A stretch of DNA of 64,000 bases from Schmidtea nova (Eukaryota). Where the stretch lies: NCBI GenBank assembly GCA_044892505.1, contig CM097882.1, positions 379,812,001 to 379,876,000 on the forward strand. Reading direction: 5' to 3'. The first letter of the stretch is position 1; every line of letters begins with the position of its first letter. Shown here piece by piece: positions 16,538 to 43,668 of the stretch. A model generated the notes under the pieces. The model did no database searches. It saw only the letters and a list, made by a program, of their open reading frames with translations, and was not told where the DNA came from. The position numbers and the translations under genes are program-made.

Positions 16538-16911
16538 TGTTGGGCCAGCCAAATCGAGCAGCATCTGAAAATAATGTACAATCAATAAAATAAATTAAAT
16601 ACAGAATAACAACAAAATAAATTACCAACACCAAAGCGTAACAAAATAAGCGGCAACATCTAAAAGAAATAAAGTATTAACCAAAACAAAATAAAACTCA
16701 AGAACTTACTCATGCGAAACAGAAAAAATCTGAATATGACAGCGCGTGGGCGGATGTCACCGAAGAGCTAAAACAAAATCAAATAAAAATTAAATCGTAC
16801 AAAAAATAAACTTACCGCATGATTAACCAAATAAATCATTGAGTTGAGTTAGGCACCAAAAAGCCGGCAACACAAAATAATGAAGCAAACATACACACAT
16901 ACTCGATGCTG

Positions 16912-17047
16912 ATTGGCTAACCAACAACACCGGTTGAGTATAAATACTGAAGTCAAATCAGTATTTGACAATGTCATTTTACCGAGTGCAAGTTGTAACT
17001 GATAACTTGTAGTAATCTTGTGAACCAATCGAAAATAAAAGGTAATT
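16912..17047 (+). promoter_or_regulatory. LTR core promoter, poly(A) signal and candidate major splice donor
   Basis: ATTGG (CCAAT box) at 16912, TATAAATA at 16939-16946, hairpin GTCAAAT-cagt-ATTTGAC at 16952-16969, AATAAA at 17034-17039, and AG|GTAATT at 17041/17042. Confidence 0.6.
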
Positions 17048-17976
17048 TCGAGTTATGTTTTGATGTATTTAAACCCTCATAATTATGTTAAAATCCATAA
17101 GGTTTTCCGGAGGCCTAACAGCCTGACGGATTCTTTGGCCTCTCAGCGCAACACACCTTATCGGTTGTGAGGTACTGATGCGGCGGGACCATAAGTTTAC
17201 TAAATACTTGATGGGGGAAAAAGGGGATGCACATAGGGTATCGAGTAAGACCTAATGATCATGAACTAAGTCAAGGTAGAGACGGTCTAGTACAAACGCT
17301 ATGCATCACGATAATAAGGTATCGAGTGACAGTTAATGGTCATAAATCGAATCAAGGTAAAGCTCATTTCGCAAGGGAAGATATATACATGAGGTATCTT
17401 GACGAGGGGGTGTACCTTCAAGGAGTGCTGGTACATCAAAAGTCGATGAGAATCGGGATAGGTAAAGCGTAACATGGTGGTCAAAGGACATTAGCGCCAA
17501 GGGGCAGTAGTGAACCGAATGAGTTGCTAATAAATACATATAATCCCACTGAGGGCATGAAAAGTCAGACCCGATAGTAGATAAAATTAGTGCGTTTCTC
17601 AACGAAGTAGTTGACTAAGGGATTACTAAATTTTCCCCGTGACGTGAATCTTGATAGTTGCTGATGATGATCCGTAAATGAACCATGTTGAATGAATGAA
17701 AATGATCGATGAGAAATTAAATGTAACGTAAAATATGATTGTAAATAACAAGTCGAAATGAGCGTAGCTAAAACCAACTGAAATTGCGGAGTGAATCAAC
17801 TCACCCAAGTAAAGTCACCACCTACATGAACACCGCGACCAATGGTCTAGTAAATTATATACGAGCTACAAGGCCTACGGCTAATAGAACGATAAACCAA
17901 GTAGGTTGATCGACATAAATATCGATGGTCGATGATAGAGTCTGTCAGTTAACCTAAAATTCCATTTCAGAGTGAC

Positions 17977-18612
17977 ATGATGAAGACCGAATATCTCATG
18001 AAGGAGCCGGTAGGACCCCTAACCGTCAAATCAGAGGAGTACATTCTACGGAGGAAACGGCGCATCCGCTCCGTCATCACACCAAAATTACCTATCGAAA
18101 TCCAAGGAGAGAAGGAGGCCCCACGCCAAATTTTCAACTCCGCACGTAGACACCTGCGTCGATGGACAAGGACCCATATGAGCACAGCGGCAAGTATTCC
18201 CGCCTGTGCATTCCAACTACAGCTGAGGTGGGAAGGCGATGTCAATTGGACGCCCTCCCCGAACCCCACCAAAGATGGATACGAAAGATGGTTCTATCAA
18301 TTTGTAGATGAAACACAACAACCCCGCTGGGTACTAAGCACCGGAATGATGACCGGGCAGGCATTCGGCCAACTCGGGTATTTGCTGCTAGACAGGCCTC
18401 GGTGTGGTGACACTGGGGAAGTCTTCGTTTACCCGAACGCCCCAGGCAGTGTTTCCGTGGATCAACACCCCGAGCCCAAAGACCTTCGCCTCTGGGAGGT
18501 GTTCATTTATCAAAACAAACTGAGTTGGAATCCGGCCCCCGAACTATACCATGAAACAGGGATTCGCCGAGACGAGAACCCGGCCGATCAAGAGTTACGA
18601 CCATACAATTGA
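17977..18612 (+). CDS. LTR-encoded 211-aa protein of unknown function
   Basis: Intact ORF, identical in both LTRs, preceded by the acceptor-like TTCCATTTCAG. Confidence 0.6.
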   Translation: MMKTEYLMKEPVGPLTVKSEEYILRRKRRIRSVITPKLPIEIQGEKEAPRQIFNSARRHLRRWTRTHMSTAASIPACAFQLQLRWEGDVNWTPSPNPTKDGYERWFYQFVDETQQPRWVLSTGMMTGQAFGQLGYLLLDRPRCGDTGEVFVYPNAPGSVSVDQHPEPKDLRLWEVFIYQNKLSWNPAPELYHETGIRRDENPADQELRPYN

Positions 18613-18789
18613 TCACGAGGACGACATCCCAATGAACGAATATCTGTTGTGAATTAAAAATATATGTATCCATTTAAAAGGGTTTTGTTTTGGTTTTGGA
18701 TGCATGGGGAATGAGTAAGGATAAGGGTGCAGTTGTTTAACGGTAAAATGGTGACTGAGAAACCAAACGATACATACATACCCTAGTTA

Positions 18790-19371
18790 ATGATACATTA
18801 CTCAGATATGGACGAAAATCCCAATCTAGATTACAAGCAAGAGGCACGCGAACATAGAGCACGATCTCGTGTCCTCGAGAGTCGCTTGAGACAGCTGAAT
18901 GAGGAGCACCAGCGGATTAAGGCAACATGGTTTAATCCTGAGAGGGTTAAAACCATCTTACAAGCCCGATACAGAGCGGAACGAACGATCGATGAACAAG
19001 CGAGAGAGGTCGCAGCCCTGAAATTAGAGTTGGCCAATTATTTAAAGGTGTCTACCCAAGACTTCATCGCTGAGCAATTGCGTCCAGTGATTAGAGCGAG
19101 CACCTTTAACAAATGGTTAAATTCGACATCAGCAACGACGAGTACGCAAACCGACGAAGAGATAATCGTAACTACGGCAACCGAGATGACCACAATCATA
19201 CCACGAGGGTCGCAGAGGACAAAACGAAGGAACCGCTTAGGGGCGAAAAAGCGGAGGGAGCGACGCGCATATGCAGATCGCGTAGGAATAGAAGTAGACT
19301 TGCTCAGTGGCCTATCTGAACAAGAACTACTAAATGTAATTAGACCCTCTGTATTGTTAAACTATAAATAA
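18790..19371 (+). CDS. LTR-encoded 193-aa coiled-coil protein with an Arg/Lys-rich motif
   Basis: Intact ORF containing KRRNRLGAKKRRERR; AATAAA follows the stop. Confidence 0.6.
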   Translation: MIHYSDMDENPNLDYKQEAREHRARSRVLESRLRQLNEEHQRIKATWFNPERVKTILQARYRAERTIDEQAREVAALKLELANYLKVSTQDFIAEQLRPVIRASTFNKWLNSTSATTSTQTDEEIIVTTATEMTTIIPRGSQRTKRRNRLGAKKRRERRAYADRVGIEVDLLSGLSEQELLNVIRPSVLLNYK

Positions 19372-19761
19372 ATGTATAAAACTAATGATTTGACTTGTCT
19401 TGTTTGTTTGTGGAATGTCTGAGAATTGAATATAACTAAAACCCGGATTCATGTAAAACTGCAGATGCGCTAAGATTAAATTACCCTAGAGCAAAAGAAA
19501 GAGCATAAGTGGGACCGAAAGAAATCCACAGACGCCTTCTATCGGTAGTGGTGGACCCGTGAATAAACAAGGGAATAGTAGCCGAAAGGTTGCTCACCTG
19601 CCTTGTCATTTCACAACGTTGACACAGTACCAACATGATGAGTAGTTAGGGATACATCATGGGTGTCAGCGGGGGAATGTTTTTATGTTGGCGAGATCAC
19701 CCTAACATATAAAATCATGAGGATCTCAGTTGTCAATCTAACCAACACACCAGCATAAATT

Positions 19762-19780
19762 TGGGGGCTCAGCCGGGATT
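19762..19780 (+). promoter_or_regulatory. Primer-binding site, tRNA-Pro-like
   Basis: TGGGGGCTCAGCCGGGATT lies 6 nt after the LTR end. The canonical Pro PBS is TGGGGGCTCGTCCGGGAT (2 mismatches). Confidence 0.85.
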
Positions 19781-20313: not shown

Positions 20314-20772
20314 ATGGAGAACAAAATAAAAGAAATGCAAACGTTTTTCGAGACAAATAACGAGACAATGGAGATAATAATGAGAAAGTTAAGACGACTC
20401 GAGGTAGGAGGATATCACAAACCGACAAACAAAACAGAAAGAGCCGAAATGATGATGAGCATAAGCGAGAATAAGATAACAGTGGATACAGCAACACGAT
20501 ATCAGTGGTATAGAGAAAGATTAAACAACCCTGAGATGAATATCGAGTGCCACAGGCTAGAACAACAAATTGCAACAAAACACGATGAGTGGATAAGAAT
20601 AACAACCGAACATACGAGACAATATCTGACGTGTTACATCTGTGAAATGAATAAGATACAGATACTGTTGTTGCCGTGTGGGCATTATCGATTCTGTAAT
20701 GAGTGTAAAATAAATGAACGATGTCCTATGTGCAACCTTCCCGTATCCGAGAAAATAACAGTGTACTTGTAA
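20314..20772 (+). CDS. 152-aa protein with a C-terminal IAP/MDM2-type C3HC4 RING (no BIR domain)
   Basis: CYICEMNKIQILLLPCGHYRFCNECKINERCPMCNLPVSEKITVYL at the extreme C-terminus. Confidence 0.85.
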   Translation: MENKIKEMQTFFETNNETMEIIMRKLRRLEVGGYHKPTNKTERAEMMMSISENKITVDTATRYQWYRERLNNPEMNIECHRLEQQIATKHDEWIRITTEHTRQYLTCYICEMNKIQILLLPCGHYRFCNECKINERCPMCNLPVSEKITVYL

Positions 20773-23744: not shown

Positions 23745-26700
23745 ATGAGTGATCACAGAGAGGATCTAAGAGAAAAATTCAAGGGCGAACCATTCAACGG
23801 AGACGCCAGTAGATTGGATACGTTCCTGAAGGAATTTGGTATATTTGTGGATATATGCGGATGGAGTGCAGAAACGTTGGCAAATCGAATCCCGCTATAC
23901 TTGAAAGATAGCGCATTGGATCTGTATATTGAAAAGAGATCGGGAAGTAGTCCACCCAGAACGTGGGAAGCGATCAAGGAGTTCTTCCAACAGACGTTTG
24001 GGATAAACAAAGTGCTGAATGAAGCATTCGATGAGTTCTCAGCAAGAAAACAGAGGAGAAATGAGTCAAATGCGGTGTACGCAAGTGAATTAAGAAAGTT
24101 GGCGAAACTGGCATTCAACAGAGGAAGTCCAGTAGACGAAGAATTGATGACAGCGTTATTCGTACGAGGTCTCAGGAGACCTGACATCAGAGCACAAGTG
24201 GGATGCAAAGGATGTAAAACAGTAGATGAAGCGTTGGAAGCAGCCAACCTATTCGAATTGCATATGGCAATGAATGACATGAGAATTACGGCGGTAATGG
24301 GAAAAACGACGGAAGATGAAGAACAAGGAAAAAGAAACATGAATCAAAGTATTCCCCATTCGCAGAGATTGTTCAAAGAACCGCCAACGAGGAAGAATAA
24401 CGGATATATTACGGTGAATACGAATGGAGGAAATAGTTACAATGATAGGCAGAATAGGCAATGTCAGACGTGTGGAAAAAACGGACATTGGCAACAAGAT
24501 TGTTTTCAGAATGTAGCCTGCAAACTGTGCGGACAAAAAGGTCACTCAGAGAATCGATGTTATGGGAAAACGTGTTACACATGTGGAAAAACCGGACACA
24601 TGTCAAAAGACTGTAATCAACAGAGAAATTGGTCAAACAGTGGAAATAGACCGAATTACGGGAATCGACCAAGCTATGGGAATCAAGGTCAACAACGGAA
24701 CAACCCAAACAGCAGTGCAAACGAAGCTAGTATGAAAGAAGCTAAGTTGAGACAGGAGGTGTCTAGATTACACGAGATAATCGAAAGCATGGCAAAGGGA
24801 AGCCAACAAGCTGCTCAACCAAAGATAAACATGATCCAGTTAATAGAAGCTGAGGCTGAAAGAGAAAATAGAGAAAGCCAACAGAAACATAACCAAGAAT
24901 GGGCTAGAGTACGACGAGAAGAAGAACAAGTCAGGCAACAACGATTACAACAGTTAAAAAAGGGAAATCCAAGGATCAACATGATGCGAGCAATGATGGA
25001 AGAGAAGCAGCAGGATGAGTCAGACGAGTTAGAAGTTAAAGAGAAAAGAAACGAAGAGCAGAAACAAGAAGAAGTGAGTCAGGAAGTAGAAGCCACAGAG
25101 CAGAATCAAAAAGTTGAAGAAGTAGAAAAAGAAACAGAAATAGAAAAAGAAACAGAAAAAGAAACGAATCAAGAAGAGGAAGTGAGAATCAAACAAAGAG
25201 GAATGTTGGTGATCATGCCGAATGATCACGTGTGGCGATTCAAATACGATGTAAAAGAAGAAGTGGGAAGATTGTTCAATAAAGTAAATGAGATGATGCC
25301 GGGAGTGACGAAACTGCCCAGAGAAGCATTCCTACAAACAGAAGATCTACCAGAAGTGAAGTTAAAGATGACTGATATATGGGAAGATATGGGAGTAACG
25401 GAGACGAAAATAAACGTGATGATCATCAGAGAGGTGGAACCGGAGAAAATCCCACCACCAGTGAAACATCAAACTCGGATCAGTCGAATATTCAAAGGAA
25501 AAATAAGACGAAGACGGTTGGAAGAAATAGATGAGTTGGAGAAAAGAATGGGAAAAGCTGAAGTAACAGGAAACGAGAATGAACTAATACAAGAAGTTAG
25601 CAAAAACGAAGCGAGACCAATCGCACATATTGGGATGCTGAGACACCCAAGACAAGAGTTGTCAGATGAAGAAGACGACAGCGAAGTTAGCAGTCTGGCA
25701 GGAGACATGCTAAAGGAACCGGAAAACGAGGATAAAAAGATGGAAGTAGTCGAGACAATAGAAACAATGTCAGTAAAGGAAGACGAAATTCAGAAGCTGA
25801 TGGATAACGCGTTGGAAGTAATCCATAACGAGGAGTTTATTGACACGAAACGATACCGAAAGTTTATACGAGCAGTATGGCAAATGAAGTACAAAGAGTG
25901 GTTACAAGAAAGAGAAGTGAGGGTAATACAAGAGTTCATAGAGAAGTTATTGAAAGAACCACTCAACGAATATGTAATACAAATATGGATAAACGAGTGT
26001 TCACCGAGAATCTGGATAAGGAACCCAATGACAGACGGAATTTACCGATGGGTTGAGGACAGATTGGGAAGCTCGTACCAAGACAAATTCATATATTCGG
26101 AAAACGGATTGGTGAGAAAAGGAACGCATATGATAGACACGGGCATCTGGCCAGGAGAAATAACGACGTTATCTATATGCAACACCAAGAAGGAAGAGAA
26201 CTTACAAGGAATCGTCAAAGAAGCGAATACGTGTTATGAGATGAGAATAAAACCTCAGTTGCTAGAGGCAAAGGAAAGAATCTTGGCAGAGAATTTGAAT
26301 ACGATGATAGAACAGATCATACAACAAATCAAGAAACATCGAAAGAAATTGACGAAAAGCGAGTATGAGAATTTGAAACAGTGTATCGAGAACATACGAG
26401 ATACAAGTCAAACGAGACATTCAAATTTCAAAACAGACAAGCTAATCGCAAAGATGGGAAAAGAAATGTTTAAAAGAGGAGAAGTATCAGATCTGAAGAT
26501 TACCGTGAGATTACCGAATGAAGAGACAAGACAAATTGAGGTAATACCAGATAGTAAAGTGGGAGAAATAGTAGATGTCATCAATGAGACGATATTACAA
26601 CGAGAACGGGAAGATGAATTCGAGGATGACATTGCGATAAAATACAAAGAACACCTACTAAACGAACGTGACGAAAGACGAGCGTATAAAATCGGCATAT

Positions 26701-29700
26701 GGGATAATTATCAGACAATACATGTCATCAGAATGGATGATGTGCAAAGAGCAACACCAAGGGATGAAAAAAGGAGAAAGAAACGACAAGAGGACGTTAT
26801 GCGCAAGCTGAGGCAGATAGTAGAAATCTATCGGAACTGGCAGATGAAGCCAGAATGGGAGACAATATTAGGAGAAGTGGATCTTAACAGACGACGATTG
26901 ACGCCAGTGGAAAAACAATGGGATAACAAGGAGAAATGTTGGAAAGTGAAAAGAGGCGTGTATGAAGAAGATCCGGAAGGAGAAGACGGATATGAACTGA
27001 ATACGAAACGGATATGTATGGTAACAAGGAAGTTATTACCAACGGACTTAGACGGACCAGAAACTGCAGTAATATGGGCAGAATTGGAGAAACAGAAAAC
27101 GAGTGAATTGATAGAGCTGTTGAGAGGAAACACTCGGGGAAAAAGACAAACAATAAAAGGCTTAGCACAATTCATAATCTCAAATGGAGAAGATATAACG
27201 AACTTGAGAAAAGTAGCTAAAGCGATAGCAGAATACAAGAGAGTTAACGAGTGGTGTCCAGAGCAACTAGACGATGTAATAAAAAAGTGGAGAAACAAAG
27301 AGTTTGCGGAGGAAACGCCACAGAAAATACATTTGAGGATAATGTATCCGAATCAGAGAAAAGAAGAGTTTTGGGTGATGCTAACGGAAAAAGTGAAAAG
27401 TGTTAAAGAGAAACTGATGTACGAACTACCATTCCACCTGCAACATCAAGGACGATCGTTGGATAACAATTTGGAAATCTGGCTGACACCAGTGCAATTG
27501 GATCTAATGAATACGCTAACAGTGGCACAAATAGTGGGTCAACCACTGAAGTTTAAAGAGGAAAAGAAAGCGAAAGGAAGCATGAGTACACCAAGTCCGA
27601 TGAAGTCAACAATGACCCCAGGAACAAGTTCGGGACAAGCAAAGACAACACCAATAAAAACGAGAGAGAGAACACCGCCAGAAGCGTATGACGTCGATGA
27701 GATACTAACAGATAGTGATGAGGCGATAGAAGAACTAACGAAGTTGACTCAAAAACCAACGGCGAATATTTTCGACAGAATAATAGAGATGCCAATAACG
27801 TCACCAGCAGAAATCGACGACCAAGGAGTGGAACAGGAGGTAGTCATAGAAATGGTAAACGATTCGGAAGACGAACAAGAACAACCACAGTTTACTCAAG
27901 AAATGGAAAGATGGTTGGAACAACGAGCAAACGAAGGAAGAGATGTGACGGAAGAAACAGGAAGAGCAACGAGATTTGTAGAAACCGGAACTGGAATGGA
28001 AAAACGACCAAGAGGAAGATCAAAGATAGATCCAGCAACAGCAATTCCAAAGACAAGAGAAGAAAGGAGACAAGAGCAATGGGAGATTTGCTTGAAGAAA
28101 TTGGATAAAATCGCAGAGATCAGAGGAAAAGAAGAGAATCAAGTTTGTCAAGGAGAAGAATGGCTCACCAAAACGATAATGGATGTGTTAGCGATAATTG
28201 ATCCAGAATTAAAGAATTTGTGGCGGATAAACGAACCTAGTACAAAGGCACGGATGCTACACAATGCAATAGCACCGATTATGCCAGAATTAATTAAAGC
28301 GAAAACAAAATCGAATCATCTAGATTGGCAAGGAACCACAATGTTAATAAAAAGGCTACTGAACGGAGCAGAAACGGACAGCAAATATCTAGTAGCAATC
28401 TCGTATACAATATACAATTTGTTAACGCTAAGCCGAGGAAGTCCGAAGTCAAGTCCGATGGGAAGACATATTAAAAATACGGCGTTGATTATCGAGAAAG
28501 AAATTGAACCATATATCCTCAGAAAAGGAGGATGGGAAAAGTTCATAAAAGAGAACCAGACGAAAGAAGGCTCAAACGTCATGAGAAAGAAACTCGAAGG
28601 AGTATTGAGAGAAATGGAGAATAGACAAACGATGCAAGGAAACGGAAGATCGACGTTGAATTTGAACTCGATAATCATGATGATGTTAGTATGGTTGTTA
28701 AGCACAGAAGGTGTAACAACGTTCGAAGTATTTGATTGCGATCAAATGAAGTTAGGAGAAAAGTACTCATTGAGAGGTACGGAGCAATGCAAAGATGCAA
28801 CTCCCGTAGAGTTAAAAGAGATTAAAAAGGAACAATGGTACAACGTGTATCAAGAGGCAGAACTAATAAAGACAATGGTGAATGAATGCAAGGTGCAGAA
28901 GACGAGATTCGCATTTTATTGTGGGAGAGGACATTATTCAGCAATTGTCATGCCAGGAACAGAAAGAGAACCAATCGTGTTGCAAGGAGAAGACTGCGAA
29001 GCATTATTTAAACATGGAGAAGTAACAACGAGAGATAAAATCAAGATAAGAGGAAAGCCAGGAATGATGTTACAGCAGACGTATTATGTAGCAGGACGAA
29101 TTACGGGAGGAGAAGGGTATTGTCAAGGAGAAACCTACCCAATATTCGGAGTGCCTGCAACCAACTTAGTTGTGATGGATACGTACATAGTTGAACTGAA
29201 AAGTTACGAAGCATTTTTTGAACCAACCACAGGAGAAATGAAAACGTTATCCATGTGTAAAATCGACAGAAGCATGTGTCAAACGGGAATGTCAACATTG
29301 GTGTATAAACCAAAGGTGAACGAATGTCAATTACAACTGCTACAAGGAGCAAAGTTTGACGAAATTCAAGGGAAAACATTCCAAGAAGAAGATGATGATG
29401 ACAAAGCTAGAGCAAAACATCTCAAAGAGGCTTTAGAGAATAAAAGACAATTGAGACCAGATCACAAAGAAAAACGGATAGAGATGAGAACCACACCAAC
29501 AGTGCTGATAACCACAAATCAGGATGTGGGAATGAGATTCATAAAAGGGAAAGCAACCCTTAAGTGCAGTACAACAGTATACGAAACAAACTATCCAGGA
29601 ATATACGTGTCAAAGCAAGAAGTGCCGAATGCGAAACCCAAGATTGACACCATGGATATCAAGCTACACTTGTATGTGAATAATAAAATGGATTTCTTAT

Positions 29701-32700
29701 TCCATAGAGGACAAGCCTCATTGCAAAAAGTGTACTATGACCTGATAAACAACGATTGTATACTGAATCGAGAAATATTAAAGACAAAGTTGGCCGTAGC
29801 GATTACGAATCCAGATAGCGCGATGCCGTTATTACCACTGAGAGAAGGACATTTCGGAAGAGTGGTCGGAGAAGCAATGTATGTATACATTTGCGAAAAG
29901 ACACACGCATCGCTAGCAACAACAACGCAGTTGAAACCTGGACAATGTACAAACGAACTAGAAATCGATTACAAAGGAAAAGTACGATACGTTCAACCGG
30001 TGACGAGAATCATCAATCCACCAAGTTTTGAACCAAATCCATTCAACTGTAGTAACGCGTACGGACCGCTTTATCAGAAGCCAGATGGCAAATGGGTCAT
30101 GTTCCCAGGAAGAACTGAAGTATTAGCACCAAGAGAATTTGAGCTAATGCAGTTGTCAAAAGATAGACAGTTCAGCGACGTAGATGTCTCAAACAACGGA
30201 ATCTATAGTCCAAAAGATCTGGAAGCAGCAAGACAGAATATACTATTTCCGGCAAGAAGAGAAGCATTACTGTCAAATATCGTAACGATAACGGGAGGAA
30301 CGAATTATCGAGAAGGACCGAATTACGAACTGCTGTTGTCACCGGCACATTTCAAGAAAGCCACAGAAAATATGATGAAGGCGATGTGGGGAAGATTCCT
30401 GATATTTGGACAAATGATGGCTGGAATACTGGGAGTTATATTGATAATACAAATCGTCAGAGTGATAATAACGCAGATGTTAGCGTGTTTCGACATCTAC
30501 AAGAGAGAAAAGAAAGTGAATTGGAAAATGGTAGTAGGATTTTTACCATTCCTTGCGAAAACGATGGTGTTACATGGACACTCAAAAGACATACATCGAA
30601 TAAAGAGGTTGTTGAAGATACTTGCAAAAATGAAAGGAACTAACGAAGATGTCGGAAGAAAATTCAAAAAGATAATGCAAGATGAACAAGCAAGACGACA
30701 ACTGAAGAAGGAAAGGAAAGGATTATGGGAAAGAGTGAGAGGATATCGAACACAAGATGATTCAAGTAATGATGACGATGATGATGACGATCGAGGAGGA
30801 CAAGCGAATATAAACCAGATTCCACAGTATACCGAAAAGAGTGCAGTTGAGAATTGGAGATACAGCGCTCCACCTCAGTCGATGTATAACGAACCGATAT
30901 ACAAAGCGAAGCCGAATATGATGCAGATGATGCCGATGACAAGTATATACCCGATAATTCCAGAAGGATGCAAAGTAAAACGAGGTAGTAGCGTAAACTC
31001 GTTGGAAGACACGCACACGATAGCAGTTATGTCCACAAATATGGGACCCATCTTAACAACAACCGTAGAAATAAACGGAAGAGAAATTGAAGCTATGATC
31101 GATACAGGCGCGAATATTTCGGCGATCGACATTAATTATATACCAGAGAAAAACCAAGGAGAAATCGAGAAGACGAATGTACATGTAATCGCGTGCAGTC
31201 AAGAGACAGTAGAAGTAGCCGGAAGATGGTTTGTAAAAATTAAGCATCGAGGTGCAGAGATCAACACGTACATCGCTGTAATACCATCGCTGAGTGTACC
31301 ATGTATTATTGGAACTGACCTGATGCCAGACCTGTTCAAGGAAATCGTGATTGATCTAGGAGCAATGAAACTAAAAGATAGAACAGGAAAAATTTGCAGA
31401 ATGAAAGTTAAAGTGGCAAGTGCAGAACAAATAGTAGTGCCAGCGAGACATGAAAAGATGTGTTATGTCAAGATCGATTCAACAATAAAGGGAGATATGA
31501 TATTCGAACCAAGTAAGAAGTTCGAAGCGAAGAAGGAATTACCAATGGCAAGAGAACTGGTTACGACAAACCAAGAAGGTGAGATACCGATTAATCTGGT
31601 AAATTTCGACGAAGAGGACAAGATAATATACGAGAATGAGAGATTGGGTAAATTGACACCCATGTCCGAAATCGAAATACCAGACAAGAATGAGTGGGCA
31701 AAGGCCAAAGAAACGATCAAGCAAAGTAGACTAGGAAACATAGAACCATCCAAAGATATGGAAATACGAGAATTCGAGTCTAGCACACTCGCGGTTCAAG
31801 CGTATGAAAGATTAATTGAAGAAATTAATGTCGAGGACGACATTTTTAAAGGACCAGGGGGTGGTTCCAAAGATCACAACGATAAAGGAGACGCCGAAAA
31901 GGAGAACAACGAGGATAACAACAGCAACAGCGACAACAAAAGAACGGAAGATGAGGAAAGAGAGAGACAAGAAGAACCGAAGCCAACGAGAAACGACAAG
32001 AAAGGAGAAGCCGAAGAACGAGACAACAGTGGAACAAAAGATGAACATGCGAACTATGGAAAACGAACAGGAAGTCTACTTTTGAGACCAGAAATGTTGT
32101 GTATTGCGATATTGATAACAATCATCGGACAAGGAGAAGCCAAGAAACAACACGTCACGCTAGAGATAATCAGAGGAAACGAAGTATACGAAAGAATATG
32201 CTGGAAAGAAAACATGAGGAAAAACGATACGCTGAAGTGCATATTGTCAGATTTGAAGAAAGACGTCATCCAAATCAAAGGATTGGAGAAAGAAAAGTCA
32301 TACATAATATGCGCAATAAAGCAGAGAGGAGAACCGAAAGCACCTCAAGTAACTGCATGTCAATTATATAAAGCAACAGAAGCGCTGAAAATACAGAAAT
32401 GGATTGAGAAAAGAAGCGAAGAGACAACGAGAAGAACAGAAGTAGAATCGGAGAAAGGGAAGAATCAATCTGAAGCAGAAAAAGGAATCGGAAACCGAAC
32501 GGAGAAAGAAAGAATAACCAAAAATTCAGCGGGAAAATTAACATTCCAACCGGAATTGATATGTGTAGCATTAATACTAATCCTCATTAAGAGAATCATG
32601 GAGGACATAGATATTAGCGTAATGACGTTAGTAAATATCCAAGACCAACGAACAACGAACGGAAGATGTTGGGGACGAAACAATGAGGTAATTGGAATCA

Positions 32701-34019
32701 GCGAAACAAGAGAAAGTCGAGAGGCAGAGACAAATGAGGAAATCGAGATAACCGAAATGGAAACAGAGAAAACATGTGAACTATGCCTCATGGAAAAGGC
32801 AGCAAACGGAAACAGACCAGGAACAAGCGAGTGTAAAGTGTTCCAAGCAAAGGAGATAATTGAGTTCCCAAAAAGAAAGAAACAAGATCAAGAAACGATT
32901 GCGAATGAAGTAGTAACAGTGGAGATAAAAAACATTGGTCGGAGAACAATTGGGATGTGTTGGAGAAAATACATCGGAGTACCGACCAACAACGTACTAC
33001 CGCAATGCAAAACGAGAGAACGAGGAATCCCGTTTCAACTAAATGGATTCGAAGTCGGACAAGCATATGAAATTTGCGTAATCCGAAGAATAAGAGAAAT
33101 AATACAAAGAAGCCTGGAATGTAAACTATACAAGACGCCAGAGCAAATTAACGGAACAAGAACGATCGAAATGGGAGGAAGTCGACAGAGGAAAAGAAAG
33201 TCAAGAAGAACCACGACAGCCAACAGTCAAGGAACTCAACAGGCAACAACAGAAAGGATGACAATAGAAAACGAACCGGAATCAACAACGTTGATAATAT
33301 GGAAGATCCATAAAAAGGTCCTAGAAATCTGTTGGACGTTGATGCCAAACAGTATGGGAAAGTCCCCACGAAACTGTCAAAAGACATCAAATGACAAAAG
33401 GGAAACAATCGAGGTAGAAATGAGGAAGTTGAAAACAAATGCAGAATACGAAGTGTGTGCAATCGAAGAAGTAGATGCACAAGGAAATCAACAGGAAAGG
33501 TGTGAAACCTATTACACGCCAAGAAACGTAACGATAAAGAGGAGAATCAAAAAGTTAGAATTCCGAGAATTGAGTCAGAAGAGAGAACAAAACGAGAAGG
33601 AGGAGACAATACCAAGTCGACAAGAAAAATGGGAACCAGAGAAAGTGATCGAAGAAGTCAGACGGAGACAACAACAATACGAACAATGGGAAGCAGAATG
33701 GAAAGGTCAATATGGCGTGATGATAAACCAAAGTGAGACTCCAAGAAGGAGCATTGGGAAAACAATAATGGGATTAATCAGCATGGGAGTATTCATAGGG
33801 TGTATACCACTGATAACGATCATGATAGTATGTTGGAGATATGGCATGAGAAATAAGACCATAGCAGTAAAATGGCCAGACGTAAAGGTCATGAATTACA
33901 ACATAAAACTACCAAAAGAAGTACGAGAAGAGCTGAAAAGACGGTCAAGACATGAAGAGATGTGGGTACAGATCGAGGACGAGGAACTGTACGAAGGAAA
34001 ACCAGTAATAGTTGTATAG
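23745..34019 (+). CDS. 3424-aa polyprotein: Gag + 3 CCHC, UBL domains, Bcl-2-like domain, chuvirus-type env, retropepsin, dUTPase-like segment, 4 FN3-like modules, TM
   Basis: Gag FNGD..F..EF..RKQ..NES; knuckles at 24462-24614; EPYILRKGGWEKF (BH2-like) at 28500-28544; signal peptide followed by FDC..YSL..C..FYCG from 28668; TM at ~30395-30480; AMIDTGANIS (DTG at 31101) and IIGTD; terminal TM at ~33765-33836. Confidence 0.93.
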   Translation: MSDHREDLREKFKGEPFNGDASRLDTFLKEFGIFVDICGWSAETLANRIPLYLKDSALDLYIEKRSGSSPPRTWEAIKEFFQQTFGINKVLNEAFDEFSARKQRRNESNAVYASELRKLAKLAFNRGSPVDEELMTALFVRGLRRPDIRAQVGCKGCKTVDEALEAANLFELHMAMNDMRITAVMGKTTEDEEQGKRNMNQSIPHSQRLFKEPPTRKNNGYITVNTNGGNSYNDRQNRQCQTCGKNGHWQQDCFQNVACKLCGQKGHSENRCYGKTCYTCGKTGHMSKDCNQQRNWSNSGNRPNYGNRPSYGNQGQQRNNPNSSANEASMKEAKLRQEVSRLHEIIESMAKGSQQAAQPKINMIQLIEAEAERENRESQQKHNQEWARVRREEEQVRQQRLQQLKKGNPRINMMRAMMEEKQQDESDELEVKEKRNEEQKQEEVSQEVEATEQNQKVEEVEKETEIEKETEKETNQEEEVRIKQRGMLVIMPNDHVWRFKYDVKEEVGRLFNKVNEMMPGVTKLPREAFLQTEDLPEVKLKMTDIWEDMGVTETKINVMIIREVEPEKIPPPVKHQTRISRIFKGKIRRRRLEEIDELEKRMGKAEVTGNENELIQEVSKNEARPIAHIGMLRHPRQELSDEEDDSEVSSLAGDMLKEPENEDKKMEVVETIETMSVKEDEIQKLMDNALEVIHNEEFIDTKRYRKFIRAVWQMKYKEWLQEREVRVIQEFIEKLLKEPLNEYVIQIWINECSPRIWIRNPMTDGIYRWVEDRLGSSYQDKFIYSENGLVRKGTHMIDTGIWPGEITTLSICNTKKEENLQGIVKEANTCYEMRIKPQLLEAKERILAENLNTMIEQIIQQIKKHRKKLTKSEYENLKQCIENIRDTSQTRHSNFKTDKLIAKMGKEMFKRGEVSDLKITVRLPNEETRQIEVIPDSKVGEIVDVINETILQREREDEFEDDIAIKYKEHLLNERDERRAYKIGIWDNYQTIHVIRMDDVQRATPRDEKRRKKRQEDVMRKLRQIVEIYRNWQMKPEWETILGEVDLNRRRLTPVEKQWDNKEKCWKVKRGVYEEDPEGEDGYELNTKRICMVTRKLLPTDLDGPETAVIWAELEKQKTSELIELLRGNTRGKRQTIKGLAQFIISNGEDITNLRKVAKAIAEYKRVNEWCPEQLDDVIKKWRNKEFAEETPQKIHLRIMYPNQRKEEFWVMLTEKVKSVKEKLMYELPFHLQHQGRSLDNNLEIWLTPVQLDLMNTLTVAQIVGQPLKFKEEKKAKGSMSTPSPMKSTMTPGTSSGQAKTTPIKTRERTPPEAYDVDEILTDSDEAIEELTKLTQKPTANIFDRIIEMPITSPAEIDDQGVEQEVVIEMVNDSEDEQEQPQFTQEMERWLEQRANEGRDVTEETGRATRFVETGTGMEKRPRGRSKIDPATAIPKTREERRQEQWEICLKKLDKIAEIRGKEENQVCQGEEWLTKTIMDVLAIIDPELKNLWRINEPSTKARMLHNAIAPIMPELIKAKTKSNHLDWQGTTMLIKRLLNGAETDSKYLVAISYTIYNLLTLSRGSPKSSPMGRHIKNTALIIEKEIEPYILRKGGWEKFIKENQTKEGSNVMRKKLEGVLREMENRQTMQGNGRSTLNLNSIIMMMLVWLLSTEGVTTFEVFDCDQMKLGEKYSLRGTEQCKDATPVELKEIKKEQWYNVYQEAELIKTMVNECKVQKTRFAFYCGRGHYSAIVMPGTEREPIVLQGEDCEALFKHGEVTTRDKIKIRGKPGMMLQQTYYVAGRITGGEGYCQGETYPIFGVPATNLVVMDTYIVELKSYEAFFEPTTGEMKTLSMCKIDRSMCQTGMSTLVYKPKVNECQLQLLQGAKFDEIQGKTFQEEDDDDKARAKHLKEALENKRQLRPDHKEKRIEMRTTPTVLITTNQDVGMRFIKGKATLKCSTTVYETNYPGIYVSKQEVPNAKPKIDTMDIKLHLYVNNKMDFLFHRGQASLQKVYYDLINNDCILNREILKTKLAVAITNPDSAMPLLPLREGHFGRVVGEAMYVYICEKTHASLATTTQLKPGQCTNELEIDYKGKVRYVQPVTRIINPPSFEPNPFNCSNAYGPLYQKPDGKWVMFPGRTEVLAPREFELMQLSKDRQFSDVDVSNNGIYSPKDLEAARQNILFPARREALLSNIVTITGGTNYREGPNYELLLSPAHFKKATENMMKAMWGRFLIFGQMMAGILGVILIIQIVRVIITQMLACFDIYKREKKVNWKMVVGFLPFLAKTMVLHGHSKDIHRIKRLLKILAKMKGTNEDVGRKFKKIMQDEQARRQLKKERKGLWERVRGYRTQDDSSNDDDDDDDRGGQANINQIPQYTEKSAVENWRYSAPPQSMYNEPIYKAKPNMMQMMPMTSIYPIIPEGCKVKRGSSVNSLEDTHTIAVMSTNMGPILTTTVEINGREIEAMIDTGANISAIDINYIPEKNQGEIEKTNVHVIACSQETVEVAGRWFVKIKHRGAEINTYIAVIPSLSVPCIIGTDLMPDLFKEIVIDLGAMKLKDRTGKICRMKVKVASAEQIVVPARHEKMCYVKIDSTIKGDMIFEPSKKFEAKKELPMARELVTTNQEGEIPINLVNFDEEDKIIYENERLGKLTPMSEIEIPDKNEWAKAKETIKQSRLGNIEPSKDMEIREFESSTLAVQAYERLIEEINVEDDIFKGPGGGSKDHNDKGDAEKENNEDNNSNSDNKRTEDEERERQEEPKPTRNDKKGEAEERDNSGTKDEHANYGKRTGSLLLRPEMLCIAILITIIGQGEAKKQHVTLEIIRGNEVYERICWKENMRKNDTLKCILSDLKKDVIQIKGLEKEKSYIICAIKQRGEPKAPQVTACQLYKATEALKIQKWIEKRSEETTRRTEVESEKGKNQSEAEKGIGNRTEKERITKNSAGKLTFQPELICVALILILIKRIMEDIDISVMTLVNIQDQRTTNGRCWGRNNEVIGISETRESREAETNEEIEITEMETEKTCELCLMEKAANGNRPGTSECKVFQAKEIIEFPKRKKQDQETIANEVVTVEIKNIGRRTIGMCWRKYIGVPTNNVLPQCKTRERGIPFQLNGFEVGQAYEICVIRRIREIIQRSLECKLYKTPEQINGTRTIEMGGSRQRKRKSRRTTTANSQGTQQATTERMTIENEPESTTLIIWKIHKKVLEICWTLMPNSMGKSPRNCQKTSNDKRETIEVEMRKLKTNAEYEVCAIEEVDAQGNQQERCETYYTPRNVTIKRRIKKLEFRELSQKREQNEKEETIPSRQEKWEPEKVIEEVRRRQQQYEQWEAEWKGQYGVMINQSETPRRSIGKTIMGLISMGVFIGCIPLITIMIVCWRYGMRNKTIAVKWPDVKVMNYNIKLPKEVREELKRRSRHEEMWVQIEDEELYEGKPVIVV

Positions 34020-34581: not shown

Positions 34582-35994
34582 ATGAGAGCAGAAAGTGAAG
34601 CAGATTACCAAACAATCGAGATTCTAAGAGGAGAGAATCGACAATGGGGAGTAAATGTGACGTGTGTAAAGTGTAAAAATTTACTGTTAAAACCGAGACA
34701 AACGGAATGTGGATGCAGGATGTGCACCAAGTGTATATTGCAAATAATCAGTGAAAGTGAGACAAGAAAGTGTCCAGAGTGTGACGATAAACTACTGATC
34801 AACGAGACAAAACCAGATAAAGCAATACAAAAGGAGATCTGGAAGATAAAAACAGAGTGTATAAACCAACCATGCGAATGGAAAGGACAAATAATCGAGC
34901 TAAGACAACATCTGGAGAAATGTGAAAACAAGAAAGCGATATGTGAAAAGTGCCAACAGACGATAACCATCAAGCAGTCAAAAAAGCACAAGGACGAGTG
35001 CAAAGCAGAGATAATAGAGTGTCAATACTGCGAACAAAGAGAGACGAGAGAAGTAATCGAAACAGAGCATCTCAACGTAGCAGAAGAGAAAGTGTGTAGA
35101 AAATTCAGAGGAATTTGTCCAAGTAATTGTGGAGCAGGAGAAGAAGTGATGTTGAAAGAACATTGGGAACAGTGCGAATCCAGACCAAGAAAGTGCGTAT
35201 GGAGTAAACAAGGATGTGCAGTAAAGAAAACGAGCAAAGAGATGAAAGAGCATTTGGAAACGGAAACGGTACAACACGCCGAGATGTTAACAGCGAATTT
35301 GAACGGAATGGAGCAAACCATACAGAAACTGGGAAAAGAAATCGAATCTCAGAGGATAATGACGGAGTTATTACTGGAAACGAGAGAGCAATTCGAGCTC
35401 ACCGGAGAAAAAATGATGGAGAAAATCAAAGTCATAGAGACATTGGTAAAAGAAGTAAACGTGAGACATCAAATGTGGATACGAGATACAGAGGATATCG
35501 AGAATTTACCGGTCGCACCATATGTATGGAAAATCAAGAACTTCAATGACAAATTCGCAGCAGCAAAAGCAGGAAGTCAAGTGTCGGTAACAAGTCCACC
35601 ATTCTATCTGTGGAAAAATGGATACAAAGTCCGGATGAGAATTTATGCAAATGGAGATGGATCAGGAAAGGAAACGCATGTGTCGTTATTCTTCGCGTTG
35701 TGTAAAGGTGGTTACGACGACATATTAGAATGGCCACTAGAAACAAAGGCTATAATGAGAGTGAAAAACTCGAAAGAAACAATAGCGAGAGTATTCAAAA
35801 TTGATGGTAAGCACGAAGCTTACAAAAGACCAACCACAGAATGTTCATTAGCGACTGGAGAACCAAAATTCATACCACACCAAACAACGTGGGAGATGTT
35901 GTACGATGACAACTTATATGTAGAATTGGAAATCGAAAAGAAAGCAAGTACAACAGTGATGAACACGAAGTGCACGAAAGGATGGTTAGAGTAG
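34582..35994 (+). CDS. TRAF: Intronless full-length TRAF-family protein (RING, TRAF zinc fingers, coiled coil, MATH)
   Basis: CVKC..PRQTECGCRMCTKC..CPEC; PDKAIQKEI..C.N..C.W.G; CVWSKQGC; MATH domain YVWKIKNF..SPPFY..GYKVRMRIYANGDGSGKETHVSLFF.L.KG.YDDILEWP. Confidence 0.95.
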   Translation: MRAESEADYQTIEILRGENRQWGVNVTCVKCKNLLLKPRQTECGCRMCTKCILQIISESETRKCPECDDKLLINETKPDKAIQKEIWKIKTECINQPCEWKGQIIELRQHLEKCENKKAICEKCQQTITIKQSKKHKDECKAEIIECQYCEQRETREVIETEHLNVAEEKVCRKFRGICPSNCGAGEEVMLKEHWEQCESRPRKCVWSKQGCAVKKTSKEMKEHLETETVQHAEMLTANLNGMEQTIQKLGKEIESQRIMTELLLETREQFELTGEKMMEKIKVIETLVKEVNVRHQMWIRDTEDIENLPVAPYVWKIKNFNDKFAAAKAGSQVSVTSPPFYLWKNGYKVRMRIYANGDGSGKETHVSLFFALCKGGYDDILEWPLETKAIMRVKNSKETIARVFKIDGKHEAYKRPTTECSLATGEPKFIPHQTTWEMLYDDNLYVELEIEKKASTTVMNTKCTKGWLE

Positions 35995-36083
35995 TCAGAG
36001 TGAACAACCCTGTAAATAAAGTGTAAAAATCGACGACAACAATAAACATATAGTATAACAAGTGTAAATTTGTAAATTACAGA

Positions 36084-37244
36084 ATGGAAAACGCAAATGA
36101 ACATGTAAGCGAAGATGACACGAGAAACGAGATGTCAAACGAACGAGAATCAATAGAAAGAGAAATCGAAAGGAGATGTAAAATGGAAGTGGAACAAAGA
36201 ACCAGAGAATTAAACGAAGTAATGACAAATAATTTCTACGAGAAACTAAAATGTGAGAGACGAACGGAGTTATATCAACTAGAACTCGAGGAAGTAAATA
36301 AAGAGATAGTACAACTGACAACACAAATGGAGAAGCTAAAAGGAACGAATGTACGAAGTCGACAGAAGATAGAAGAGACCTATCAGTTGATGAGGAAACA
36401 AGCAGAACATTATAAAAATATGATGAAAACACGAAGAGAAGAGAGGGAGAAACAAGAGGAAAAGATGGAGGTAAAAATACTAGCAATCAAGGCTCAAGCG
36501 AGACATTGGAAGATGGAGTCGAAACGAGTGTATAAAGAAGCCAAAGAAATAATCAGAAAGACAGCATACAGCGAAGATTGGAAACTGTATCAAGAGATAG
36601 ACGAATTGAAAGAGGAATTGGAACAGAAAAAGCGACAAGAACAGACAAACAAAGAATGGAGTCGAAAACGACAGCGATTTATTCGAGAACAGGCGAAGGA
36701 ACTAAAGAAAACGCAATGGCAAATACAGATGATAAATGGAGAAATGCGAGGCATTAGACAGAAAGAGGAAGCGGAAAGACAAAAGTTGATCAGGGAAAAA
36801 GAAAGTCTGGAAAGAGATGTAAATGGCTACCAAGGAGTAGTGACTCAAAAGAAAATGGAACTGAAAGCTGTGAAGGAAAGACATGCGGAATCAAACCGAG
36901 CTTATGAGGAAAATATAACGAACTTGACGAAAGAAAACGAGGAACTGAAACAACAAATAAGAACCCTGAAAGCAGAGAAAGAAACCCCAGAAATAGAAAC
37001 CGAACCACCAGAAGCAGAAGCCCTGAAGAGAAAAGTGGAAGAAATGGAAAGACAAATCGAAACTCTGAGCGAACAATCAGACTACATGGAGTATCTGTTA
37101 GATGAAGAGATACAAATCTCTCGAACGTATCAAGATGAAATCGCAATGTGGCGAAGCAGAGTGGTGTGGTTACCGTTTATACCACCACCACCAATGGAAC
37201 TCCAAGATGAAGGGTTCCATGAACCAGAGGAGACGGATGTGTAA
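36084..37244 (+). CDS. 386-aa coiled-coil cargo protein
   Basis: Long intact E/K/R-rich heptad ORF. Confidence 0.75.
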   Translation: MENANEHVSEDDTRNEMSNERESIEREIERRCKMEVEQRTRELNEVMTNNFYEKLKCERRTELYQLELEEVNKEIVQLTTQMEKLKGTNVRSRQKIEETYQLMRKQAEHYKNMMKTRREEREKQEEKMEVKILAIKAQARHWKMESKRVYKEAKEIIRKTAYSEDWKLYQEIDELKEELEQKKRQEQTNKEWSRKRQRFIREQAKELKKTQWQIQMINGEMRGIRQKEEAERQKLIREKESLERDVNGYQGVVTQKKMELKAVKERHAESNRAYEENITNLTKENEELKQQIRTLKAEKETPEIETEPPEAEALKRKVEEMERQIETLSEQSDYMEYLLDEEIQISRTYQDEIAMWRSRVVWLPFIPPPPMELQDEGFHEPEETDV

Positions 37245-37317: not shown

Positions 37318-37842
37318 ATGAACTGGCTCAAAACCCTACCAATCCTAACGATTATGTTAACTACAACAATAATGACCTGTTCAACAACCGAAATCCAAAG
37401 AACCCTGTCAAACGAGATATCCCAAGAAATCGAAAAACAACTAAACGAAGTCAGAGAAGACTTGGAACAATTAATCCGACAAATGCGAATCAGTCATGAT
37501 CATCGCAAACCCTTACAAACCCTATTCAACCAAATCGAGAAGATCCGAGAAATCCATAAAACATTCCAAGATCACCTAAAGCCCATCAAAGGCCAAACCC
37601 AAATCGAATCCGAAATCCGAAACAGATGGATCATCGTGGGAATAGTCACAATGACAATACTGACAATCATCCTGATCATCGTGATTACGCATACCCTATA
37701 TCGAATCAGAAGCCTCAAACAACAACAAACGATAATGTGTAGATGCGCCAAACGAGAAGCAAAAACCCAACAAAGGATGAGAAGTCATCTACGACAAATC
37801 CAAGCCCGATACGAAATGCAGTCAACCAGTGAAAGGACCTGA
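37318..37842 (+). CDS. 174-aa predicted type I membrane protein (signal peptide, helical ectodomain, TM)
   Basis: N-terminal MNWLKTLPILTIMLTTTIMTC and TM WIIVGIVTMTILTIILIIVITHTLY. Confidence 0.75.
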   Translation: MNWLKTLPILTIMLTTTIMTCSTTEIQRTLSNEISQEIEKQLNEVREDLEQLIRQMRISHDHRKPLQTLFNQIEKIREIHKTFQDHLKPIKGQTQIESEIRNRWIIVGIVTMTILTIILIIVITHTLYRIRSLKQQQTIMCRCAKREAKTQQRMRSHLRQIQARYEMQSTSERT

Positions 37843-39486
37843 AAACCGACCCCTATGAGCCAGAAACATTGAACTGTGTATAAACAATAAAAACATGACA
37901 AGGACAATGTGTGACTTTGTAAAAATGGGTATAAAAGCTACCACCTTATGTGGTTTTGCATGTAAGTTCTGTCACGAACTTTTTATGTATGTTGATGTAG
38001 GTATATGCATGTAATTGCGGGACGCAATTTTAGGGGACCCCGAGTGATGTTGGGCCAGCCAAATCGAGCAGCATCTGAAAATAATGTACAATCAATAAAA
38101 TAAATTAAATACAGAATAACAACAAAATAAATTACCAACACCAAAGCGTAACAAAATAAGCGGCAACATCTAAAAGAAATAAAGTATTAACCAAAACAAA
38201 ATAAAACTCAAGAACTTACTCATGCGAAACAGAAAAAATCTGAATATGACAGCGCGTGGGCGGATGTCACCGAAGAGCTAAAACAAAATCAAATAAAAAT
38301 TAAATCGTACAAAAAATAAACTTACCGCATGATTAACCAAATCAATCATTGAGTTGAGTTAGGCACCAAAAAGCCGGCAACACAAAATAATGAAGCAAAC
38401 ATACACACATACTCGATGCTGATTGGCTAACCAACAACACCGGTTGAGTATAAATACTGAAGTCAAATCAGTATTTGACAATGTCATTTTACCGAGTGCA
38501 AGTTGTAACTGATAACTTGTAGTAATCTTGTGAACCAATCGAAAATAAAAGGTAATTTCGAGTTATGTTTTGATGTATTTAAACCCTCATAATTATGTTA
38601 AAATCCATAAGGTTTTCCGGAGGCCTAACAGCCTGACGGATTCTTTGGCCTCTCAGCGCAACACACCTTATCGGTTGTGAGGTACTGATGCGGCGGGACC
38701 ATAAGTTTACTAAATACTTGATGGGGGAAAAAGGGGATGCACATAGGGTATCGAGTAAGACCTAATGATCATGAACTAAGTCAAGGTAGAGACGGTCTAG
38801 TACAAACGCTATGCATCACGATAATAAGGTATCGAGTGACAGTTAATGGTCATAAATCGAATCAAGGTAAAGCTCATTTCGCAAGGGAAGATATATACAT
38901 GAGGTATCTTGACGAGGGGGTGTACCTTCAAGGAGTGCTGGTACATCAAAAGTCGATGAGAATCGGGATAGGTAAAGCGTAACATGGTGGTCAAAGGACA
39001 TTAGCGCCAAGGGGCAGTAGTGAACCGAATGAGTTGCTAATAAATACATATAATCCCACTGAGGGCATGAAAAGTCAGACCCGATAGTAGATAAAATTAG
39101 TGCGTTTCTCAACGAAGTAGTTGACTAAGGGATTACTAAATTTTCCCCGTGACGTGAATCTTGATAGTTGCTGATGATGATCCGTAAATGAACCATGTTG
39201 AATGAATGAAAATGATCGATGAGAAATTAAATGTAACGTAAAATATGATTGTAAATAACAAGTCGAAATGAGCGTAGCTAAAACCAACTGAAATTGCGGA
39301 GTGAATCAACTCACCCAAGTAAAGTCACCACCTACATGAACACCGCGACCAATGGTCTAGTAAATTATATACGAGCTACAAGGCCTACGGCTAATAGAAC
39401 GATAAACCAAGTAGGTTGATCGACATAAATATCGATGGTCGATGATAGAGTCTGTCAGTTAACCTAAAATTCCATTTCAGAGTGAC

Positions 39487-40122
39487 ATGATGAAGACCGA
39501 ATATCTCATGAAGGAGCCGGTAGGACCCCTAACCGTCAAATCAGAGGAGTACATTCTACGGAGGAAACGGCGCATCCGCTCCGTCATCACACCAAAATTA
39601 CCTATCGAAATCCAAGGAGAGAAGGAGGCCCCACGCCAAATTTTCAACTCCGCACGTAGACACCTGCGTCGATGGACAAGGACCCATATGAGCACAGCGG
39701 CAAGTATTCCCGCCTGTGCATTCCAACTACAGCTGAGGTGGGAAGGCGATGTCAATTGGACGCCCTCCCCGAACCCCACCAAAGATGGATACGAAAGATG
39801 GTTCTATCAATTTGTAGATGAAACACAACAACCCCGCTGGGTACTAAGCACCGGAATGATGACCGGGCAGGCATTCGGCCAACTCGGGTATTTGCTGCTA
39901 GACAGGCCTCGGTGTGGTGACACTGGGGAAGTCTTCGTTTACCCGAACGCCCCAGGCAGTGTTTCCGTGGATCAACACCCCGAGCCCAAAGACCTTCGCC
40001 TCTGGGAGGTGTTCATTTATCAAAACAAACTGAGTTGGAATCCGGCCCCCGAACTATACCATGAAACAGGGATTCGCCGAGACGAGAACCCGGCCGATCA
40101 AGAGTTACGACCATACAATTGA
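39487..40122 (+). CDS. 3'-LTR copy of the 211-aa ORF
   Basis: Identical translation to 17977-18612. Confidence 0.6.
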   Translation: MMKTEYLMKEPVGPLTVKSEEYILRRKRRIRSVITPKLPIEIQGEKEAPRQIFNSARRHLRRWTRTHMSTAASIPACAFQLQLRWEGDVNWTPSPNPTKDGYERWFYQFVDETQQPRWVLSTGMMTGQAFGQLGYLLLDRPRCGDTGEVFVYPNAPGSVSVDQHPEPKDLRLWEVFIYQNKLSWNPAPELYHETGIRRDENPADQELRPYN

Positions 40123-40299
40123 TCACGAGGACGACATCCCAATGAACGAATATCTGTTGTGAATTAAAAATATATGTATCCATTTAAAAGGGTTTTGTTT
40201 TGGTTTTGGATGCATGGGGAATGAGTAAGGATAAGGGTGCAGTTGTTTAACGGTAAAATGGTGACTGAGAAACCAAACGATACATACATACCCTAGTTA

Positions 40300-40881
40300 A
40301 TGATACATTACTCAGATATGGACGAAAATCCCAATCGAGATTACAAGCAAGAGGCACGCGAACATAGAGCACGATCTCGTGTCCTCGAGAGTCGCTTGAG
40401 ACAGCTGAATGAGGAGCACCAGCGGATTAAGGCAACATGGTTTAATCCTGAGAGGGTTAAAACCATCTTACAAGCCCGATACAGAGCGGAACGAACGATC
40501 GATGAACAAGCGAGAGAGGTCGCAGCCCTGAAATTAGAGTTGGCCAATTATTTAAAGGTGTCTACCCAAGATTTCATCGCTGAGCAATTGCGTCCAGTGA
40601 TTAGAGCGAGCACCTTTAACAAATGGTTAAATTCGACATCAGCAACGACGAGTACGCAAACCGACGAAGAGATAATCGTAACTACGGCAACCGAGATGAC
40701 CACAATCATACCACGAGGGTCGCAGAGGACAAAACGAAGGAACCGCTTAGGGGCGAAAAAGCGGAGGGAGCGACGCGCATATGCAGATCGCGTAGGAATA
40801 GAAGTAGACTTGCTCAGTGGCCTATCTGAACAAGAACTACTAAATGTAATTAGACCCTCTGTATTGTTAAACTATAAATAA
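40300..40881 (+). CDS. 3'-LTR copy of the 193-aa ORF
   Basis: Differs from the 5' copy by one L/R substitution. Confidence 0.6.
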   Translation: MIHYSDMDENPNRDYKQEAREHRARSRVLESRLRQLNEEHQRIKATWFNPERVKTILQARYRAERTIDEQAREVAALKLELANYLKVSTQDFIAEQLRPVIRASTFNKWLNSTSATTSTQTDEEIIVTTATEMTTIIPRGSQRTKRRNRLGAKKRRERRAYADRVGIEVDLLSGLSEQELLNVIRPSVLLNYK

Positions 40882-41640
40882 ATGTATAAAACTAATGATT
40901 TGACTTGTCTTGTTTGTTTGTGGAATGTCTGAGAATTGAATATAACTAAAACCCGGATTCATGTAAAACTGCAGATGCGCTAAGATTAAATTACCCTAGA
41001 GCAAAAGAAAGAGCATAAGTGGGACCGAAAGAAATCCACAGACGCCTTCTATCGGTAGTGGTGGACCCGTGAATAAACAAGGGAATAGTAGCCGAAAGGT
41101 TGCTCACCTGCCTTGTCATTTCACAACGTTGACACAGTACCAACATGATGAGTAGTTAGGGATACATCATGGGTGTCAGCGGGGGAATGTTTTTATGTTG
41201 GCGAGATCACCCTAACATATAAAATCATGAGGATCTCAGTTGTCAATCTAACCAACACACCAGCACATCGTAATGGATACAATAATATTCGATTGTGATA
41301 TCACGTTATGATGATCTGAAAGTAGGCAGTTATGTGGAGCATGAGTCATCGCCGAACAAAGGAAATGACGTCACCCCCCATGGGTTAGGAAAATTTTTAT
41401 GACATATCGCGATGACTCATCGATGACTCATTTCAAATTTGAATTTTATGACGTCATCAACGACTCATTTCAATTTCAAATTTTAAATTTGAATTTCCAA
41501 AGGTCAAATAAGGTCAAACCTTCAAACAAGGGTATCATTCGAATGGTCTTTGAGAGGTGCACACAATGGTCATACCCTCGAATGTTTATGGAGGGTTCTT
41601 AACCTTCAAAGGGTGCAAAACCTTCAACCTTTTTCAAACC

Positions 41641-41687
<47 letters not shown>

Positions 41688-42746: not shown

Positions 42747-42785
<39 letters not shown>

Positions 42786-43630: not shown

Positions 43631-43668
<38 letters not shown>

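Follow-up and report, generated by a model that had tools for sequence, protein, structure and literature searches.

A pol-deleted copy of a Burro-type giant gypsy element in Schmidtea nova and the FN3-like membrane cassette at the end of its polyprotein

The window considered here, 64,000 nucleotides of Schmidtea nova contig CM097882.1, holds an LTR element of 24.7 kb (16538-41265) that carries one very large ORF with smaller ones on either side, all on the forward strand. Its Gypsy/Metaviridae hallmarks are paired LTRs of the TG...CA type, the 5' one of 3,218 bp (16538..19755) and the 3' one (38048..41265) with 3 mismatches relative to it, a 4-bp target-site duplication, CATC, on both sides, and a PBS-like sequence right after the 5' LTR (19762..19778; 1 match, 0 in 100 shuffles) which is presumably of the tRNA-Pro type. 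Inside the 5' LTR are two ORFs of no known family, 17977-18612 (211 aa) and 18790-19371 (193 aa), and the same two are present in the 3' LTR; the LTR variants of other copies are only 70-78% alike or have an internal deletion relative to the window LTR. A RING-finger ORF of 152 aa (20314..20772; zf-C3HC4_3, E 3e-9), in which no BIR match was found, precedes gag, and the 5' leader between the two contains a 19-bp tandem array and an array of ~85-bp repeats (21460-22050, 22300-22912), with similar arrays in other copies. The first large ORF after the main one (34582..35994) encodes a complete TRAF with RING, zf-TRAF and MATH (Pfam, MATH E 4e-25), and is followed by a coiled-coil ORF (36078..37244) with no Pfam family over cut-off and a small ORF with hydrophobic segments (37318..37842). 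The insertion site (16200-16537 and beyond 41265) is a decayed reading frame that by eye is similar to a Penelope-type RT C-terminus and to which Pfam matched no family. Close behind the 3' end of the element, long inverted repeats (41320-44246 versus 49902-52404, 94-99% over about 600 bp) that hold internal 102-120-bp repeats suggest a DNA transposon.

The main ORF is open from stop to stop over 23382-34019 (3545 aa), and from its ATG it encodes a polyprotein of 3,424 aa (23745..34019). Gag (23892..24620) is a Pfam Retrotrans_gag match with three CCHC knuckles read from the sequence. Env (28683..30503) comprises a signal-like segment, a Monjiviricetes-type fusion protein (PF24664, E 1e-67) and a TM near 30420. 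Just before it, at 28110-28560, is a helical segment with a GGW motif that we take to resemble Bcl-2 BH2, a segment with no match in Pfam, PDB or Atlas. The aspartic protease (31059..31331; PF00077, E 8e-9; aa 2560-2650 of the frame) is followed by a beta segment without Pfam match (31350..31687). RT is missing after the protease, as the initial annotation had noticed: Pfam recovers the protease and no RT, RNase H or integrase from the main ORF, alignment agrees that all three are absent, and the copy is not autonomous.

It was also right that four repeats and a TM come after the protease in that single frame (23382-34019), two hydrophobic segments (32070-32138 and 32550-32594) having been overlooked. 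The cassette consists, in order, of an internal signal-peptide-like hydrophobic segment (32070..32138; hydropathy, and a helix in the model), module 1 (32151..32384), a second conserved hydrophobic segment (32550..32594), modules 2 (32616..32852), 3 (32907..33140) and 4 (33279..33521), a transmembrane helix by hydropathy (33765..33836) and a tail of 60 aa in which an acidic Tyr motif is conserved (33837..34019). The motifs by which the repeats had been recognized lie at 32280 (GLEKEK), 32757 (METEK), 33048 (FEVGQ) and 33429 (LKTNA), and the repeat pattern is real, its unit being longer than had been written, with CW...C at the N-terminus: CW...C...L....Y.(I/L/V)C...C..(Y/F). All 27 aligned modules, from 8 loci, have the C, the W and the two C-terminal Cys without exception. 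Strongly basic clusters between modules 2 and 3 and between 3 and 4 (32870-32900, 33180-33215) are present in all subfamilies and are possible cleavage or glycan-binding sites.

What fold do such modules adopt? Structure prediction gave six strands per module in both models, strand A missing, and the modelled modules superpose on FN3 strands B-G as a beta-sandwich, aligning from near FN3 residue 14. Module 3 was modelled with pLDDT 80; module 2, which is without the second Cys, fell below pLDDT 50 and its fold is not resolved. All 50 VIA rows were FN3-type by title, and of the 103 proteins matched by the module profile, 21 of the 23 scanned have Pfam fn3. PF00041 was nowhere above cut-off (sub-threshold in 3/27 modules, best E 0.053). 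Fibronectin type III likeness, as the initial annotation had proposed, is thus supported at moderate strength overall, the models pointing to modules 1, 3 and 4 as six-stranded sandwiches with disulfides probably at C-C' and F-G, to judge from strand adjacency. With PF00041 domains, the Cys-bearing ones of LRFN/FLRT/ELFN included, they share the B-G sandwich, the L-x4-Y corner and the F-G Cys pair; they differ in having no strand A in any modelled module, in having an extra Cys pair on C/C' and in remaining below Pfam cut-offs. Given the shallow alignments behind the models, 'FN3-like' is a better label than 'canonical'.

The F-G Cys pair, invariant in 27/27 modules, is presumably a feature of LRFN/FLRT FN3 domains, and Fn3_ELFN is approached by two of the 27 modules (E 0.065, below cut-off). 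It is on likeness to Cys-containing FN3 domains, and on the modules coming in frame after the protease region with no RT, that the initial annotation had based its proposal that pol was replaced by a captured and amplified LRFN/FLRT-type ectodomain. However, the same Cys pair is present in unrelated FN3s, Pfam finds no LRR array or Ig domain in the cassette or the upstream frame, and no host FN3 is close to the modules (best E 0.068, with 30 of 123 host fn3 loci scored), so that kinship of this sort is not sustained as an origin.

The pol-bearing relatives settle the matter. A genome search with the protease region gave 147 scored places and one with modules 3-4 gave 150; in most copies some 6.5 kb separates the two regions, and a single frame of ~5,085 aa often takes in both. 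In two pol-bearing copies (L041, L058) Pfam finds PR, RT, RNase H, IN and ankyrins with the modules after them, all in a single frame, which puts the PR-RT-RNaseH-IN order in place at the level of the family. When RT-bearing copies were checked for a missing cassette the opposite was found: pol-bearing relatives, aligned with the window, have the same modules after pol, the very observation that the initial annotation had named beforehand as telling against itself. All four long-frame subfamily-1 loci examined align in two blocks, split at 31688-31708, and alignment to pol-bearing copies puts the deletion junction at a 7-bp overlap, 31688..31694. The net loss there, in 5/5 junction copies, is 4,641 bp with the frame kept, and what is absent is RT, RNase H, integrase and ankyrin repeats. 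Sequence on either side of the junction is native to the element; a post-ankyrin segment that includes LIEEINVEDD and an acidic linker (together 31695..32069) are part of full-length copies too, and LIEEINVEDDIFKG (31812), near which the replacement boundary had been sought, is a peptide that pol-bearing copies conserve in each of the three subfamilies. Genomic pattern counts were 5 for the junction, 109 for the intact arrangement and 0 for controls. The cassette therefore adjoins the protease in the window copy because of an in-frame RT-RNaseH-IN-Ank deletion. Signal, four Cys modules, TM and tail are the normal C-terminus of the family's polyprotein, after integrase and ankyrins, and what the window holds is a Burro-type giant gypsy element in the form of a young deletion copy that is not autonomous. 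The exchange of pol for a captured receptor is refuted by the pol-bearing relatives, the counts of 5 versus 109 and the deletion itself, and retains next to no probability; our account of the anatomy and origin of the element, function being a separate matter, we regard as very probable.

Three subfamilies, with polyproteins of about 5,085, 5,140 and 5,650 aa, carry the cassette at 35-38% identity. In subfamily 3 the whole cassette is present twice in tandem in a single frame at 4/4 loci (L061-L064), with 4+3 modules, two of the seven being read by eye, and two TMs. Pairwise identity among the four modules of the window is 14-26%, and modules 2 and 4 cluster by position across subfamilies; module amplification is therefore old. 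Module dN/dS comes to 0.14 in subfamily 1 and likewise in subfamily 3, from 2 pairs in each, and to 0.32 in one subfamily-2 pair. Comparing subfamily 2 with subfamily 3 gives 0.16, and comparing the window with one full copy gives 0.19; the RT value is 0.02. Subfamilies 1 and 2 are 41% identical in the modules versus 96% in RT.

Near-identical LTR pairs in three junction copies, 99.9% (window), 100% (measured over 1,667 bp, in a copy with its own 4-bp target-site duplication) and 99.6%, point to recent insertion without an RT of their own. One base 10 nt downstream of the junction is common to 5/5 junction copies and missing from all 23 intact locus records, which represent 19 places; this favours a single origin. 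Over the module region the junction copies do not form one clade, and 5' of the junction they are no closer to each other (95.1% versus 95.4%); recombination with helper copies would reconcile this non-clonal pattern with the shared base. The deleted lineage would keep Gag, Env, protease, cassette protein and accessory ORFs in frame and be copied by the RT and integrase of intact relatives. It has company: a second in-frame pol deletion, of 4,809 bp, occurs four times in the same subfamily (L049-L052). Could pol-less copies be kept for making the cassette protein, which by occupying or removing the Env receptor would let carrier cells resist further entry? The two multi-copy deletions, of 4,641 bp (x5) and 4,809 bp (x4), and two of four single-copy ones do keep the frame into the cassette. 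However, frame retention in 4 of the 6 independent pol deletions seen at the examined loci, set against a 1-in-3 expectation, is a suggestive bias only (P about 0.1), escape from nonsense-mediated decay would also explain it, and with 109 intact patterns to 5 junctions the deleted copies add little dose, so that superinfection exclusion of this kind is improbable.

How might the cassette protein be made? From hydropathy its topology would be type I, the second hydrophobic segment leaving the placement of modules 2-4 ambiguous. The polyprotein would enter the ER at the Env signal, return to the cytosol for the protease, plus pol in full copies, and re-enter the ER at the post-integrase signal, with signal peptidase releasing a separate type I membrane glycoprotein. 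The likeliest job for it, if one short of probable, would be attachment or cell contact, as a second surface protein that acts alongside the fusion-type Env, and the retention of the cassette across the clade considered below together with its fast divergence between subfamilies would fit a host-facing surface protein.

Another reading makes the cassette a decoy or a mimic of a receptor, through which host survival or immune signalling would be altered, its ectodomain binding a host ligand or receptor and its tail signalling via the element's TRAF, RING and ankyrins. The window tail matches PxExx(acidic), which we take to be a TRAF6-type motif, though subfamilies 2 and 3 do not conserve the last position of the motif. 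In favour are the invariant tail residues across subfamilies 1 and 2, the acidic Tyr motif among them, and the complete TRAF that comes as the next large ORF, with the RING and ankyrins also carried; in addition, PMC13465017 reports at second hand that planarian stem cells are protected by a Burro1 IAP. Against this, no host receptor donor was found, and in public relatives within the clade a membrane cassette persists after integrase where no ankyrins are matched, a pattern that fits a core role better. A mimic is accordingly possible if on the doubtful side, and some smaller chance belongs to a job other than attachment, mimicry or superinfection exclusion.

Those relatives were placed by an RT-RNaseH tree (FastTree) of the 109 listed public pol matches, of 120, that passed filters. 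Five of the 109 have a TM after integrase (P0104-P0107, P0110), and all five are in a clade (SH 99) with the three subfamilies and with P0109, whose protease is preceded by the same env; among the other tree members the tail after integrase is long but free of a TM in 19 and short in 85. These six unnamed proteins are, at 44-47% identity, the closest pol sequences among the matches listed. A signal-like segment accompanies the TM after integrase in 5/5 and Cys beta modules are present in 4/5, P0110 being the exception; in P0106 there is a cassette of signal, Cys module and TM before the protease too (residues 50-245). A profile of the relatives' modules matches 19/103 FN3-rich proteins at E <= 0.1 (0 shuffled, 0 reversed), a set preselected by the module profile of the window family, and one of 80 loci, the metagenome contig L122 (E 2e-9), which repeats the post-integrase layout of signal, modules and TM. 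What the window family shares with P0104-P0107, P0110 and L122 is a signal-like segment and TM after integrase; they differ in having one or two modules, against four, or 4+3, in the window's subfamilies, a different Cys pattern and no ankyrin match, and their modules are at most candidate homologues of those in the window. In a different gypsy element (L116:2324-10974) the region fused on behind integrase is env-like (signal...TM), and the two ORFs that come next resemble deoxynucleoside kinases by eye.

A broader conjecture is that the env-before-protease gypsy clade, Burro-type elements included, encodes a post-integrase FN3-like attachment glycoprotein paired with a fusion-only Env, by analogy with viruses that have separate attachment and fusion proteins; that the domains here, being without strand A, have an open edge at which they could bind host FN3 proteins by strand complementation; and that pol-less satellites spread keeping it in frame. 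We rate this unlikely as it stands. The pol-for-receptor swap falls away, the window element being a deletion copy of a kind already known; what remains is that, within the half of the Burro-type polyprotein that had no explanation, one part can be annotated as a conserved, receptor-like membrane protein, and the relatives suggest that a wider clade of retroelements has such a post-integrase protein in common. Were it an attachment protein or a signalling decoy, it could be used to find out whether these giant elements pass from cell to cell like viruses and in what way they influence host survival pathways.

Section 7 of PMC6431247 describes Burro/GYPSM1 as giant gypsy-like LTR elements of dugesiid planarians with an ORF1 of ~5,000 aa, env in frame between gag and pol, ankyrins and TRAF; the same source reports a dUTPase-like domain where the window has its post-protease beta segment, and Burro is also reported to have a BCL2-like one at the position matching 28110-28560. 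Neither FN3 nor a membrane protein after integrase is named in that section, 'fibronectin' has 0 matches in the main text, and among the papers that literature searches brought up none described an FN3-like tail, although the primary Burro papers and their supplements may contain one. By architecture, compared with Burro by description only, the window element matches the Burro type. Shared are the ~5,000-aa ORF1 (many copies have frames open over 5,076-5,685 aa), gag with three CCHC, a length of roughly 29 kb when undeleted (24.7 kb here after the 4.6-kb loss), a mononegavirus-like env in frame between gag and protease (the PF24664 match being at the Burro-type position), and PR-RT-RH-IN then ankyrins, with MATH/TRAF and RING cargo, the ankyrins and MATH/TRAF being found with Pfam. 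Candidate segments for BCL2-like, Ubi/SUMO-like, dUTPase-like and BIR motifs had no match in Pfam, PDB-sequence or Atlas searches, those of Burro having been found with HHpred, and none of the named Burro1-4/GYPSM1 is among the 120 pol matches listed; unlike Burro/GYPSM1, the window element has TRAF on a separate downstream ORF.

Non-autonomous LTR retrotransposon derivatives with internal deletions, like defective retroviral genomes, are an established phenomenon. The window copy shares with them both LTRs, PBS and gag, the loss of pol at a short overlap, and recent insertions with their own target-site duplications; it differs in keeping a 3,424-aa frame with Env, protease and C-terminal membrane protein, together with all of the accessory ORFs.
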